From: a plasmid
Direction: 5' to 3' (one strand)
Sequence record: NZ_CP087668.1
Length of the DNA stretch: 5,596 nucleotides
The number at the start of each line of letters is the position of its first letter. Positions within the stretch are counted from its first letter, which is position 1. Both the position numbers and the translations under genes were made by a program. Below, in pieces: positions 1 to 5,273 of this stretch. The notes under the pieces are model-generated. The model had not been told where the DNA came from. It saw nothing but the letters and a program-made list of their open reading frames with translations, and ran no database searches.

Positions 1-225
1 ATGCTTGCTATCCGGTTATCTGATGAGATTGAGTCCCGTCTGGACTCGCTGGCGAAGCAAACCGGCAGAACAAAGACGTTTTATGCGCGGGAAGCAATAC
101 TGGCGCATCTGGAAGACCTGGAGGATTATTATCTTTCAGCAGAAACTGCTGCACGCGTTCGCCGTGGTGATGAAGCAGTGCATTCGTCTGAAGACGTGAG
201 GAAGTCACTTGGTCTGGACGATTAA
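1..225 (+). CDS. Ribbon-helix-helix antitoxin, ParD/RelB-like (74 aa). It may be complete, since the ATG is at position 1, but the window edge could truncate the true 5' end.
   Basis: Open frame 1-225 with a TAA stop at 223-225. The N-terminus MLAIRLSDEIESRLDSLAKQTGRTKTFYAREAILAHL fits an RHH fold: a beta strand of alternating hydrophobic residues followed by two helices. The acidic C-terminal tail is typical of a toxin-binding domain. It sits immediately upstream of, and overlaps, a RelE/ParE-like ORF, which is the classic type II TA arrangement. Confidence 0.7.
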   Translation: MLAIRLSDEIESRLDSLAKQTGRTKTFYAREAILAHLEDLEDYYLSAETAARVRRGDEAVHSSEDVRKSLGLDD

Positions 226-475
226 CTATTCCGATCGGGCGCTCAAATCGTTACGCAAGATGGACAAACAGAACGCACGACGGATTGTGGATTTTATGAG
301 TTTACGCATTGCAGTTGCTGCCGATCCTCGCCAGTCAGGGAAGCCGCTCAAAGGTGAGCTGGGCGAGTTCTGGCGCTATCGGGTGGGAGATTATCGCGTT
401 CTGTGTGAGATCCGAGATGACGAGCTTGTTATCCTTGCCGCCACGATTGGACATCGCCGCGAAGTTTACGACTGA
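209..475 (+). CDS. RelE/ParE-family type II toxin (88 aa), probably started at TTG 209
   Basis: The protein VWTINYSDRALKSLRKMDKQNARRIVDFM...LKGELGEFWRYRVGDYRVLCEIRDDELVILAATIGHRREVY has the RelE/ParE N-terminal pattern (W-x-I-x-Y-S-x-x-A-x-K-x-L-x-K-x-D) and the C-terminal YR(V/I)xY...I(L)xIxHR motif. The only start that keeps the conserved N-terminus is TTG at 209-211. It is preceded by a GAGGA Shine-Dalgarno at 198-202 with a 6-nt spacer, and it overlaps the antitoxin stop by 17 nt. The stop is TGA at 473-475. Confidence 0.72.
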   Translation: MVWTINYSDRALKSLRKMDKQNARRIVDFMSLRIAVAADPRQSGKPLKGELGEFWRYRVGDYRVLCEIRDDELVILAATIGHRREVYD

Positions 476-498
476 AGCCCGCTATGCGGGCTTTTTTG
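476..498 (+). terminator. Rho-independent terminator of the TA operon
   Basis: AGCCCGC (476-482), loop TAT, GCGGGCT (486-492), then a T6 run at 492-497, directly after the toxin stop. On the - strand there is no U-run after the hairpin, so it is unidirectional. Confidence 0.6.
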
Positions 499-544: not shown

Positions 545-940
545 CTACTGTTTGTCGGTTTTAGTTAACCAGCAGGTTGTCTTAACGATAATGTAGCCGT
601 TATTTTTAACTAATAAGGTCATATTGTTAACGTCAGGCATAATAAAAGACATTATGGCCTCAGAGTTATCATCAGAAGCAGCTCTCTGCATTACTACTTC
701 GATTCCCTTTTCTTTGAATCTATAAGTATCCAGTTGCCTATTAAACTTAGAAAGACCTACAACCATACTTAGTTTGTTATCTTTAACAGTAAGAGATGCT
801 TCCTGAGTACCATTACATCGGTAGTAAGCGGTGTAACCGTCAGCAAAAGATCGACCGGGGAATATAAATGCTAGGAACGCAATTAACCAATACATAGTTG
901 AGAATCTTGGTATTACACATTTCACTATCCTCTCTTTCAT
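545..940 (-). CDS. Exported small protein (131 aa) with a cleavable signal peptide and two Cys in the mature part. It is possibly an MliC/PliC-like periplasmic beta-barrel; that assignment is speculative.
   Basis: The ATG is at 938-940 on the - strand with a weak GGTGA Shine-Dalgarno upstream. The N-terminus MKERIVKCVIPRFST-MYWLIAFLAFIF-PGRSFA|DGY is a positively charged n-region, a hydrophobic core and an A-x-A-like cleavage site, with no lipobox Cys. The mature protein has Cys in YYRC near its N-terminus and in TTCWL near its C-terminus, consistent with one disulfide. It lies 20 nt downstream of the previous gene within the AT-rich operon. Confidence 0.6.
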   Translation of the reverse strand: MKERIVKCVIPRFSTMYWLIAFLAFIFPGRSFADGYTAYYRCNGTQEASLTVKDNKLSMVVGLSKFNRQLDTYRFKEKGIEVVMQRAASDDNSEAIMSFIMPDVNNMTLLVKNNGYIIVKTTCWLTKTDKQ

Positions 941-960
941 TTTTCGTTCACCATACTTTG

Positions 961-1506
961 TTATCTGATTTTTAATTTTTCTATTTTATAAACCAAGTCT
1001 CTACCAAAAAGGCGAAAATTATCCTCAAATAATAATAATTGTTTAAGAACATCCATGAAAGCAGCTGCTTCACCCTCAGTTATGGGAGCTACTCTATATA
1101 ACATATAACCTGAGTTAAGGGTTTCTTTTATACTTTCTTCAATGCTCATTATAAATATTAGTGGATTATCATTTTTCTTCCCCCATGGGTTTCTAATTAA
1201 TCCTTCGATGTACTCAGGTCCTTTGCGTCCTATTGCCTGCGCAATATTTTTTATTTCATCTGCGTGAGGGCTTTGTTGTACAGCTTTGTTTATGCCTGCT
1301 TGAGTGATTTTCAGAGACTCTACACCGTGTATGTTGTATGAGATAAAATGTAATAAATTAAGATGCAATGCAATTAATCCATTTTTGTTTACATCTGAGT
1401 ATTTGGATAAAAAACGTAATGAAGTGTTAACTCTCCCTTGAAGCCTAACAATTGGGAGTGCTGCCTTGTATATTTCCTTCTCCGTTAAATACCGTTTAAA
1501 AAACAT
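961..1506 (-). CDS. Hypothetical cytoplasmic protein (181 aa), the central gene of the AT-rich cargo operon. It is a candidate toxin or effector partner of the upstream RHH protein.
   Basis: Complete ORF with its ATG at 1504-1506 on the - strand and a GGAGGCGGAG Shine-Dalgarno about 5 nt upstream. The stop is TAA at 961-963. There is no transmembrane segment or signal peptide. I see no Walker A, HEPN Rx4-6H, Fic or nucleotidyltransferase motif. The A+T-rich codon usage matches its two neighbours. Confidence 0.65.
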   Translation of the reverse strand: MFFKRYLTEKEIYKAALPIVRLQGRVNTSLRFLSKYSDVNKNGLIALHLNLLHFISYNIHGVESLKITQAGINKAVQQSPHADEIKNIAQAIGRKGPEYIEGLIRNPWGKKNDNPLIFIMSIEESIKETLNSGYMLYRVAPITEGEAAAFMDVLKQLLLFEDNFRLFGRDLVYKIEKLKIR

Positions 1507-1531
1507 AATTCTCCGCCTCCGTATAGCGTGC

Positions 1532-1858
1532 CTATTTTATTTCGTCGTAAAACTTAGCTCTGAAATATTCCTTTAGAACCATCATGTCATTAATAATTGA
1601 ATCTATCTCATCCATTTTTTCTTGGTATTCTTTTAATGGTGAAGGGAGCGGTAACTCAATATTTGAAAAGTGATTGGCGAGATAGGGATCAAGGTTTCTC
1701 ATCCATTCAGGCTTTTCGCCAATGCGTTCTTCAACTGAAAGTGAACCTGATAATCTCTGGTTAATAAGATCACTTAGACTCATTTTGGTTTTATTCGAAA
1801 GCCGTTGTAAGGATTGCTTTAATCCTATATCTAGCATGATATTTGTTCTTTCTCTCAT
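1532..1858 (-). CDS. Ribbon-helix-helix (ParD/CopG-like) DNA-binding protein (108 aa), the first gene of the AT-rich operon. It is a candidate antitoxin or autoregulator.
   Basis: The N-terminus MLDIGLKQSLQRLSNKTKMSLSDLINQRL closely parallels the RK2 ParD RHH pattern LTIDMTDQQHQSLKALAALQGKTIKQYALERL. The ATG is at 1856-1858 on the - strand with AAGGGGGGG just upstream. An alternative ATG lies 7 codons in. The gene ends 25 nt before the next one. The C-terminal half is acidic and helical, as expected for a partner-binding domain. Confidence 0.65.
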   Translation of the reverse strand: MRERTNIMLDIGLKQSLQRLSNKTKMSLSDLINQRLSGSLSVEERIGEKPEWMRNLDPYLANHFSNIELPLPSPLKEYQEKMDEIDSIINDMMVLKEYFRAKFYDEIK

Positions 1859-1935
1859 TACCCCCCCTTGCTATTGCGTTTTTTGTTGCGCACAAAGCTA
1901 CCATTGCGCATTAAGAAACGCAATAAAAAAGGAGG
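1859..1935 (-). promoter_or_regulatory. Putative sigma70 promoter plus operator repeats for the AT-rich operon
   Basis: Read on the - strand: TTGCGT, 17 nt, TAGCTT, about 35 nt, then ATG. The region carries ATTGCG at 1874-1879, CGCAAT at 1919-1924 as an inverted pair, and two copies of the palindrome TGCGCA at 1888-1893 and 1906-1911. These overlap the -35/-10 and are typical of RHH-repressor operators. Confidence 0.4.
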
Positions 1936-2052
1936 GAGGGAGTGGTTTGTACATGATGTGCAGTGCGCTGAGGGCATCAGTGGCGGGTGTTTTTCCGTGG
2001 GATGGATGGAGCTCCGGGGATAACAGAACTGACGATCATTTAAAGGATCTTC

Positions 2053-2079
2053 TTGAGATCCTTTTTTTCTGCGCGTAAT
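2053..2079 (+). promoter_or_regulatory. RNAII (preprimer) promoter of the ColE1-type origin
   Basis: TTGAGA at 2053-2058 and CGTAAT at 2074-2079. The context gatcttcttgagatcctttttttctgcgcgtaatct is nearly identical to the pMB1/ColE1 RNAII promoter. Confidence 0.65.
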
Positions 2080-2091
2080 CTCTTGCACTGT

Positions 2092-2197
2092 AAACGAAAA
2101 AACCGCCTGGGGAGGCGGTTTGATCGAAGGTTAAGTCAGTTGGGGAACTGCTTAACCGGGTAACTGGGTATACGAGACCGCAGATACCAAAACTGTT
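2092..2197 (-). ncRNA. RNAI, the antisense copy-number-control RNA (about 105 nt)
   Basis: The - strand start acagttttggtatctgcg parallels pMB1 RNAI acagtatttggtatctgcg. The 3' end is a hairpin CCGCCT-CCCC-AGGCGG (2103-2118 on the + strand) followed by a U6 run. The whole RNA is complementary to the 5' end of RNAII. Confidence 0.75.
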
Positions 2198-2202
2198 CTT
2201 TC

Positions 2203-2232
2203 AGTGTAGCCGCAGTTAGGCACCCACTTCAA
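2203..2232 (-). promoter_or_regulatory. RNAI promoter
   Basis: On the - strand: TTGAAG (+ strand 2227-2232), an 18-nt spacer, TACACT (+ strand 2203-2208), and the start about 7 nt further on at 2197. The layout matches the pMB1 RNAI promoter. Confidence 0.6.
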
Positions 2233-2799
2233 GACCTCTCAATATCTCTCTCGTATATATCCAGTTACCAATGGCTGCTGCCAGTGGCGTTTTTGCGTGT
2301 CCGTCCGGGTTGGACTCAAGATGATAGTTACCGGAAAGGGCGCAGCAGTCGGGCTGAACGGGGGGTTCGTGCATACAGCCCAGCTTGGAGCGAACGACCT
2401 AAACCGAGCCGAGATACCAGCAGCGTGAGCTATGAGAAAGCGCCACGCTTCCCGAAAGGGAAAAAGGCGGAACAGGTATCCGGTAAACGGCAGGGTCGGA
2501 ACAGGAGAGCGCACGAGGGAGCCGCCGGAGAGAAATCACCGGCATCTTTAAGTCCTGTCGGGTTTCGTCCTCCTCTGACTTGAGCGTCCATTTCTGTGAT
2601 GCTCGTCAGGGGAGGCGGAGCCTATGGAAAAACGGCAACGCCGCATCCTTTTCTCCGGCCCTTTCTGATTTGAGCGCCTTTGCTTTATCCCGTTATCCGT
2701 GAGTCGGTCACGCCCGCCGCAGCCGAACGGCAGGAGCGCAGCTACCGAGTGAGCGAGGAGGCGTCATTTCATCTGTCCGTGCATGGTATTGCGGACGCT

Positions 2800-2960: not shown

Positions 2961-3013
2961 GGAGCGACCCGGAAAACTTTTCCGTGCCGTCCGGCGTTTG
3001 CGAAGGAGGGATA

Positions 3014-5105: not shown

Positions 5106-5131
5106 CCTGGCTGCATGGCTATGCAGCCAGG
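5106..5131 (+). other. Perfect 11-bp-stem hairpin downstream of mbeA. It may be a weak terminator or a protein-binding site.
   Basis: CCTGGCTGCAT, loop GGCT, ATGCAGCCAGG. Only a short, interrupted T tract follows (TAAAATTTATCT). Confidence 0.3.
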
Positions 5132-5273
5132 TAAAATTTATCTGTCGCGAACGGGGCGGTTTATCGGGTGGTTTGTTGCCGGTTTTACCTGACTGCCACC
5201 CCGTTCGCGGCGAACCCGTCCGGGGCGGTGCGGGCAACGGGTGTTATGTTTAATCAGCGTGAACGGCAGATAC

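Follow-up and report, generated by a model that had tools for sequence, protein, structure and literature searches.

A putative Arc/Mnt-like repressor gene and two candidate passenger genes in a cargo slot of a small ColE1-type plasmid

Introduction

Do three short, adjacent, AT-rich genes on a small plasmid form a functional system of their own, or do they represent a repressor gene followed by passengers? This question is raised by the sequence NZ_CP087668.1, which we analysed over its whole length of 5,596 bases (hereafter, the window) and which corresponds to a complete small plasmid, ColE1-type and mobilizable, of the pCKO2/Klebsiella lineage. Three of its genes, here called A, B and C, lie one after another on the minus strand and are labelled 'hypothetical protein' in every annotated record. 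A first description of this DNA, made from its letters alone (hereafter, the original prediction), had seen in A and B a possible antitoxin/toxin pair and in the three genes together a candidate uncharacterised system, perhaps for defence. Neither proposal agrees with the distribution of these genes. We consider it somewhat probable that the block is a mosaic accessory cassette, composed of an Arc/Mnt-like repressor gene (A) and two passengers (B and C) and lodged in a slot of a ColE1-type plasmid.

A compositionally distinct operon of three coding genes

A, B and C are real coding genes under purifying selection, with ratios of nonsynonymous to synonymous substitution rates (dN/dS) of 0.11–0.25 for A, 0.08–0.20 for B and 0.42 for C. 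They are separated by exactly 25 nt (A-B) and 20 nt (B-C), and each is preceded by a purine-rich motif resembling a ribosome-binding site (RBS): AAGGGGGGGTA-ATG for A, GGAGG-N9-ATG for B and GGTGA-N7-ATG for C. The co-orientation, short gaps and individual RBSs described in the original prediction were thus all recovered; it named no strand for the genes, which lie on the minus strand, and its estimate of the guanine-plus-cytosine (GC) content (25–30%) was too low. Positions 545–1858 contain 35.0% GC versus 56.1% in the remaining plasmid, with a minimum of 31% in a 200-nt window. The block is therefore compositionally distinct all the same, and its interpretation as cargo that a small mobilizable plasmid gained by horizontal transfer is supported. 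The coordinates of the three genes and of the other features of the plasmid are collected in Table 1.

A, B and C are not inherited together

We took the genomic context of every divergent homologue of the three genes and re-screened all these loci for each of them by tblastn. A word-indexed search among 5.8 billion proteins, run for each gene, yielded only tiny families with no link to any named one. The three genes were found together in the window lineage only, that is, in plasmids of the pCKO2 type, which speaks against the idea of a single three-gene system or defence module. A accompanies B in one of the five A lineages, and B accompanies A in one of its eight lineages, to which one more with a remnant of A can be added. 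C was found only directly downstream of B, in the window lineage and in loci L008/L009. The original prediction had proposed to survey other replicons for the three-gene neighbourhood and had named a lack of co-conservation as evidence against its own proposal; this is the outcome that we obtained, and the pairing of A and B as antitoxin and toxin is unsupported on the same ground, as well as because B matches no toxin family.

The closest relatives of B (87% identity) occur in L008/L009, where B is followed by C (76%) after a gap that is likewise 20 nt long and the pair adjoins Tn3-type transposase/resolvase genes. DNA homology between L008 and the window covers positions 513–1572 and includes ~40 nt of the 3' end of A, a remnant indicating that the B-C pair of L008/L009 goes back to an A-B-C arrangement from which A has disappeared. 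Other relatives have neither neighbour. B stands alone in L007 (73%), flanked by sopAB and a HigBA module on a contig where phage tail genes also occur, as well as on a 110-kb contig of Klebsiella aerogenes (L002/L003, 65%; the L002 contig also encodes a DNA ligase, an integrase, CobT/AAA_5 and the Pol III alpha subunit), and in L010 (66%) and L004 (55%). Its most divergent homologues were found directly after the genes of a fimbrial subunit and a MrkD-like adhesin, where a fimbrial operon ends (P0042 in L032, 34%), and adjoining a phage tail tube gene (L033, 31%). At the solitary loci homology starts only at the RBS of B, the gene is richer in AT than its flanks wherever it occurs, and it has remained under strong purifying selection in the lineages where it is alone.

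A also occurs without the other two genes. It is solitary in L014–L016 (70% identity; L014 also carries Rop), in L011–L013 from Proteus mirabilis (55%) and in the Enterobacter IncFII plasmids of L030 (36%); in L017/L029/L031 (41–42%) it is followed by a 79-aa membrane-like open reading frame (ORF) and a gene for a 180-aa protein. In L014–L017 and L029, as in the window, A lies 200–300 nt downstream of RNAI on the same strand, and B and C are missing there. A tblastn search with two divergent A homologues retrieved no further plasmid lineages.

A replaceable slot beside the replication origin

Comparison of the window with the Escherichia coli loci L029/L031 revealed the position in which these genes are exchanged. 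The replicon (window 2042–2652) is 85% identical and the RelE/ParE module (1–495) ~90% identical between the two, and no DNA is common to them between replicon and module. The slot is bounded by the RNAI/RNAII replication-control region on one side and the convergent RelE/ParE module on the other, and contains A-B-C (35% GC) in the window and an A homologue followed by the 79-aa and 180-aa ORFs (31% GC) in L029. The window cassette thus resembles the cargo of other ColE1-like plasmids in sitting where a related plasmid holds a different cassette. It can also persist in a much reduced setting, since the 2.8-kb circular plasmid pRHBSTW-00515_7 consists of the replicon plus A-B-C and nothing else.

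The alternative cassette occupies positions 3001–4118 of L029 and 1190–2307 of L031; its A homologue has 106 aa, and the 79-aa ORF includes a hydrophobic, membrane-like segment. The 180-aa protein, which begins with MFF, shares the size and the N-terminus of B and was considered as a possible homologue, but hhalign gave a probability of 0.7% and we rejected it. We likewise rejected NZ_CP129774.1 (4.56 kb), which at first sight had lost B-C naturally, because this linear record is incomplete and interrupted within genes A and C.

On the plasmid backbone, downstream of the mob genes, there is a perfect hairpin with an 11-bp stem, CCTGGCTGCAT-GGCT-ATGCAGCCAGG (window 5106–5131). A 35-nt element (5155–5189) has a 91% counterpart in L014/L016, where it lies ~125 nt past their solitary A gene, and it may be a conserved backbone site marking the other side of the cargo slot.

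A putative ribbon-helix-helix repressor and its upstream region

Residues ~1–47 of A appear to form a ribbon-helix-helix (RHH) domain of the Arc/MetJ type, a reading on which all the matches obtained agree. The N-terminal domain matched Pfam RHH_3 (E=0.022, 15.2 bits versus a cut-off of 21.6) and the PHROG of Arc-like repressors (E=0.009). A profile built from four members of the A family retrieved, among PDB sequences, the P22 Arc variants 1u9p_A (E=0.0017) and 1nla_A (E=0.57) as well as 9pio_G, an 'Arc family DNA-binding protein' (E=0.79). Other members of the family gave weak matches to RHH_1, RHH_5, DUF6290, DUF6364 and CopG_antitoxin. A 14-bit match in PADLOC-DB 2.0, restricted to the C-terminus of LmuA, was spurious. 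The ParD-like RHH protein of the original prediction hence survives as an RHH protein, at a sub-threshold level, but with Arc/Mnt and not ParD as its nearest match.

The likeness to the Arc and Mnt repressors of phage P22 concerns both the protein and its DNA. The strand-helix-helix of A aligns with Arc across helices A and B of the latter, up to a common ...ERIG, and short repeated subsites overlap A's own promoter-like sequence. A differs from these repressors by its length of 108 aa, by being plasmid-borne beside a ColE1 origin, by matches to RHH families that all fall below the curated thresholds, and by a distinct C-terminal region of ~60 residues that has no match. This region is well conserved, with G47, P50, P72, L75, Y78, D83, I89, N90, L95, K96, Y98 and F99 invariant whether B, another gene or nothing comes after A. 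It ends in an amphipathic helix (residues ~73–106) with hydrophobic residues spaced by 3–4 positions. Mnt has a C-terminal oligomerisation helix and, by analogy, the helix of A could mediate higher-order assembly. A would represent a new member of the RHH repressors, recognised below threshold, and B and C fit none of the described families.

Directly upstream of A we found a 32-nt imperfect inverted repeat with arms at 1861–1892 and 1905–1936; position 1935, where the original prediction had placed the end of the block, coincides with the end of this region. Four of the nine copies of the motif TTGCG[C/T] / [A/G]CGCAA present in the whole plasmid lie within 1861–1936, together with a -35-like TTGCGT that is separated by 17 nt from an extended -10-like TGgTAGCTT. 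The first subsite recurs at the same distance (~-66) upstream of the A homologues of 70% and 41% identity, and in the latter it gives TTGCGT-16 nt-TATAAT. Two TTGCGC copies precede the Proteus homologue, and TTGCGTT is invariant in the alignment of the upstream regions. These features suggest that 1861–1936 is probably the promoter of the operon with an overlapping operator, through which A would repress its own transcription.

At the other end of the cassette, the GC-rich hairpin at 477–491 is followed on the plus strand by six T and reads as a canonical terminator of the convergent RelE/ParE gene. The A-B-C transcript probably also ends there, since this is the sole hairpin between the two convergent units. 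In the minus direction the hairpin is followed by just two T, and it was not listed by our terminator scan; the homology of B-C to L008 ends at window position 513, short of the hairpin.

A further observation in the upstream region concerns the G-tract at 1861–1867 (minus strand), between the Shine-Dalgarno (SD) sequence and the ATG of A, which varies among near-identical copies: G7 in the window, G6AG4 in L001/L026/L027, G8TG in L019 and G8AG in L023/L024. This variation changes the SD-to-ATG spacing and explains why the Prokaryotic Genome Annotation Pipeline (PGAP) calls a longer A, of 121 aa, in pCKO2. It could tune the translation of A or be a homopolymer sequencing error.

B belongs to a very small orphan family

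B is a member of a very small orphan family that behaves elsewhere as a single-gene unit. The word-indexed search of 5.8 billion proteins yielded 9 clusters, and a full HMMER profile search among 1.84 billion representatives yielded 13 matches. Only 23 of 72,556 plasmids carry the gene, all of them from one lineage; no record of the phage collection matched, and scans of genome, viral and metagenome loci returned nothing beyond further copies of this plasmid and previously identified loci. As the original prediction had anticipated, B showed no recognisable motif: it had no match in Pfam (even at E<=10), NCBIfam, PADLOC or PHROG, and its profile retrieved nothing among PDB sequences.

The structure predictions proposed for B and C were carried out with AlphaFold2 (AF2) and gave models of unusable confidence. 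The model of B, from a six-sequence alignment, contained 7 helices with a predicted local distance difference test score (pLDDT) of 44; that of C, from three sequences, showed ~7 strands after the signal helix with a pLDDT of 41. Foldseek comparison of both models with the PDB gave nothing with E<=0.001 and template modelling (TM) scores of at most 0.28, and we discarded these results.

Around the B gene of L002, positions 5491–7820 encode colicin M-like, Acb2/Tad1-hairpin (anti-defence-like) and glutaredoxin proteins as well as a DUF8209-DUF1493 pair, a set of neighbours that looks like an accessory island.

C is a putative exported protein found only with B

C carries the features of a Sec signal peptide and is likely exported by this route. 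The predicted signal occupies codons 1–33 (window 842–940) and comprises a basic n-region, MKERIVKCVIPRFST, with a net charge of +3, a hydrophobic core of 12 residues, MYWLIAFLAFIF, with a Kyte-Doolittle peak of 1.69 at residue 18, and the cleavage motif SFA|DG. The mature protein would have 98 aa and an isoelectric point (pI) of 8.6, with one cysteine close to either end (Cys42 and Cys123), probably forming a disulfide; the signal peptide and the two mature cysteines announced by the original prediction were accordingly recovered. P0012, the only divergent homologue of C (76% identity), keeps the signal peptide, the cleavage site (as SFA|SG), both cysteines and the MKERI start, which favours the 131-aa reading over the 116-aa call of PGAP.

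No match to C was found in Pfam, NCBIfam, PADLOC, PHROGs or the PDB, and the mature protein is predicted to be beta-rich by the AF2 model. Its signal peptide, mature size of ~100 aa, predicted beta-richness and one cysteine near each end recall MliC/PliC, the colicin M immunity protein Cmi and YebF. C gives hhalign probabilities below 1% to MliC and YebF (with reference sequences entered by hand) and has no Pfam or PDB match; it also has no lipobox (the residues before Cys do not fit L-x-x-C) and lacks the SxSGAxY motif of MliC. We therefore rejected both an MliC-type inhibitor (hhalign 0.3%, no Pfam MliC match) and a YebF-like protein (0.04%). The original prediction had also considered that all three proteins might show confident homology to a well-described system, such as a bacteriocin immunity cluster; we found none for B and C, and no colicin, pyocin or immunity family of Pfam matched in the window, which thus does not encode a recognisable colicin-type bacteriocin/immunity/lysis cluster.

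When window 545–1506 was compared with L008 6475–7436, the synonymous divergence was 0.95 in B and 0.30 in C, and C was the less conserved protein (dN/dS of 0.42 versus 0.08 in B). This pattern suggests that recombination has occurred inside the B-C module and that C is under relaxed or diversifying selection.

Repressor with passengers, toxin-antitoxin pair or defence module

The cassette that we favour would work as follows. A would assemble as a higher-order oligomer through its conserved C-terminal amphipathic helix and bind the four TTGCGY/RCGCAA subsites over its own promoter; this binding would lead to autorepression and limit the expression of the AT-rich genes downstream. B and C would be passengers transcribed from the promoter of A, in a transcript probably ending at the 477–491 hairpin. 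B would be a self-sufficient, basic, all-helical cytoplasmic protein encoded by a single-gene unit of the 'moron' type, found in plasmids, phage-plasmid-like elements and one fimbrial operon. Our best guess for its role is an action on nucleic acid or gene expression, not toxicity. C would have been added to B only in the window lineage (and the derived L008/L009) and would act in the periplasm or beyond. B recalls the 'moron' genes of temperate phages and phage-plasmids in being AT-rich, in having an RBS to itself and in standing singly among toxin-antitoxin (TA), partition and accessory genes, although 'moron' and cargo slot alike are descriptive classes and not mechanistic families.

An RHH gene in first position, with a larger gene only 25 nt further on in the same plasmid-borne operon and no terminator in between, is also the layout of type II TA pairs with RHH antitoxins, such as ParD/ParE, RelB/RelE and the pair at window 1–475. 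A could on these grounds be the antitoxin of B, a new toxin, with C as an unrelated or auxiliary passenger. An N-terminal DNA-binding domain with a C-terminal extension would suit an antitoxin, one A homologue weakly matches CopG_antitoxin, and antitoxin families pair with different toxins. We nevertheless regard this explanation as unlikely. In six to seven lineages B is found in the absence of A, where it is strongly constrained by purifying selection and has no conserved partner upstream, and in four lineages A is found without B; being a single gene in most of its contexts, B is probably neither an A-dependent toxin nor a C-dependent partner. B resembles no toxin family and no PADLOC model, and the plasmid already possesses a canonical RelE/ParE module. 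In addition, the C-terminal region of A is conserved independently of the downstream gene, which is not expected of a toxin-binding tail and argues against a partner-specific one. A regulator plus cargo fits this evidence better than an antitoxin plus a toxin. Small plasmids often have defence or immunity modules, and A, B and C might alternatively be the regulator, the cytoplasmic effector or sensor and the periplasmic component of a new compact defence, immunity or exclusion system: homologues of B occur in phage-plasmid-like accessory regions, near TA modules and colicin M-like and Acb2/Tad1-like genes, and the cassette persists in the minimal 2.8-kb plasmid. We hold this to be the least probable of the alternatives, because its three supposed components are not co-conserved, B and C have no PADLOC or PHROG match and none in the phage collection, and among 72,556 plasmids B is present in only 23, which all belong to one lineage. 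We also give little credence to a more novel reading, taken as a whole, in which A-family RHH genes mark exchangeable, AT-rich, origin-proximal cassettes of ColE1-type plasmids and either the B-C pair or B by itself is a functional module of mobile elements not seen before. B could there be a cytoplasmic sensor of DNA or nucleic acid with C as exported effector or immunity protein (for instance in exclusion, anti-phage or anti-bacteriocin functions), or B alone could be a new class of mobile-element regulators that reprograms host surface or motility genes.

Two further alternatives concern the individual passengers. The positive charge and predicted helical nature of B, its 'moron'-like contexts on mobile elements and the fimbrial-operon position of one relative led us to the guess, tentative and well below even confidence, that it acts as a regulator on nucleic acid or gene expression. 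A more specific version, which we consider doubtful, makes B a highly divergent TetR-like or other helix-turn-helix (HTH) transcription factor that may control C or host motility/adhesion genes. B resembles TetR proteins (~180–220 aa) in its size (~180 aa) and basic charge (pI 9.5), its low-confidence AF2 model is all-helical, and it has an N-terminal hydrophobic/Gly pattern in HTH register and HTH-like spacing at residues 9–47. Two weak matches in different members of its family are collinear with the TetR layout: TetR_N at residues 15–44 of P0042 (E=0.09, 13 bits versus a cut-off of 24, in one of eight members) and TetR_C_39 at residues 135–181 of P0008 (E=0.079). Moreover, hhalign places residues 10–42 of B in register with the HTH of AcrR, and P0042 is encoded directly after a fimbrial adhesin gene. 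Against this, the hhalign probability for QacR, TetR(B) and AcrR reached at most 4.8%, and a 12-sequence profile of the TetR N-domain scored 16.7 versus 11.6 +/- 2.4 for column-shuffled controls, 2 of 60 of which reached the same value; the reference sequences of all these comparisons were entered by hand. The Y-x-x-F-x-x-K signature is absent, B shows no significant sequence or profile match to the family, its profile, searched against the PDB at E<=10, finds no TetR chain, the B of the window itself has no Pfam match even at that threshold, and the analogy to regulators of fimbrial operons is positional only. As for C, it might be an orphan periplasmic immunity or inhibitor protein, directed against a bacteriocin, an effector of a type VI secretion system or a lysozyme-type enzyme, and hence the selected cargo, with B as a hitch-hiker. 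Several small periplasmic inhibitors share small size, beta-richness and a single cysteine pair, and C, with its Sec signal, mature size of ~98 aa, predicted beta-rich structure and one pair tying both ends, agrees with this description; its dN/dS, above those of A and B, is also compatible with an arms-race protein. Since C resembles neither MliC/YebF nor any PDB chain or family library, no cognate toxin gene occurs on the plasmid and C is always accompanied by B, which for its part is often found without C, we find this role quite unlikely, somewhat less so than a three-component defence system.

Several observations weigh against our preferred explanation, a mosaic cassette of a repressor gene and its passengers. 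No single RHH match of A exceeds a curated threshold, and DNA binding and autorepression by A are deduced from sequence features. Since the A family comprises just five lineages, the notion of a conserved head gene with variable cargo is built on few cases, and many contigs with solitary A or B are short, such that distant partners could be missed. The tight A-B spacing and the RHH-first order are also seen in TA pairs. Finally, no positive evidence points to a function for B or for C: the AF2 models had too little confidence to be used, the fold searches were uninformative, and the TetR-like signal in B does not outperform its shuffled controls.

If correct, this explanation describes for the most part something ordinary, a small plasmid with a repressor-controlled accessory operon of orphan genes. 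An Arc-like gene by the ColE1 origin that heads different AT-rich cassettes would nonetheless point to a recurrent cargo slot and to a simple way of controlling foreign AT-rich genes on high-copy plasmids. The B family is extremely rare, under clear selection and mobile as a single gene, and a phenotype for it would annotate a family of protein 'dark matter'. Neither its rarity nor the cargo slot currently bears on a long-standing open question.

Plasmid setting and other features

Full-length matches to the window, with 99.5–99.9% identity, were found in pCKO2 of Citrobacter koseri ATCC BAA-895 (NC_009794.1) and in ~20 plasmids of 5.6 kb from Klebsiella pneumoniae and E. coli. The matching 5.6-kb plasmids are classified as mobilizable and as having a MOBP relaxase, and the RNAI gene identifies the replicon as ColE1-type. 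The antitoxin and toxin genes at window 1–475 form a canonical type II TA module. Neither the protein accessions nor pCKO2 appeared in our literature search, and genes A, B and C are absent from a review of small Klebsiella plasmids.

Table 1 Features of the 5,596-base plasmid NZ_CP087668.1
Feature	Position	Strand	Remarks
DUF6290/TraY-like RHH antitoxin, 74 aa	1-225	+	Pfam; overlaps RelE/ParE toxin gene
RelE/ParE toxin, 88 aa	209-475	+	Pfam; convergent to A-B-C cassette
GC-rich hairpin GCCCGC-TAT-GCGGGC	477-491		followed by T6 at 492-497 on + strand; read from sequence
Gene C, 131 aa	940..545	minus	
Gene B, 181 aa	1506..961	minus	basic, pI 9.5; no transmembrane segment
Gene A, 108 aa	1858..1532	minus	acidic, pI 5.5
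Promoter/operator-like region	1861..1936	minus	inverted/direct repeats; putative promoter and operator
RNAI	2094-2195	minus	Rfam, 74.7 bits
MobC/MobA/MbeB/MbeD genes	~3135 onward	+	

In related records PGAP annotates a 52-aa 'replication initiation protein' that corresponds to window 2216–2374 on the minus strand. This is probably an annotation artefact, since the ORF lies within the RNAII region, beside RNAI, and a replicon of this type needs no Rep protein.

Plasmids 96–100% identical to the window also occur on small contigs labelled Limoniibacter endophyticus, Shewanella intestini and Microbacterium barkeri (L020, L021 and L022), and P0014, a partial copy of protein C, has Pseudomonas aeruginosa as its source label. 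These labels most likely reflect laboratory or sequencing contamination and not the true host range.

Copies of the plasmid were, in addition, embedded in much larger ones: the entire 5.6 kb in CP128744.1 (222 kb), all or most of it in NZ_CP093857.1 (316 kb), 86% in NZ_MF168404.1 (151 kb) and 76% in NZ_MW191860.1 (141 kb), which suggests the formation of cointegrates.

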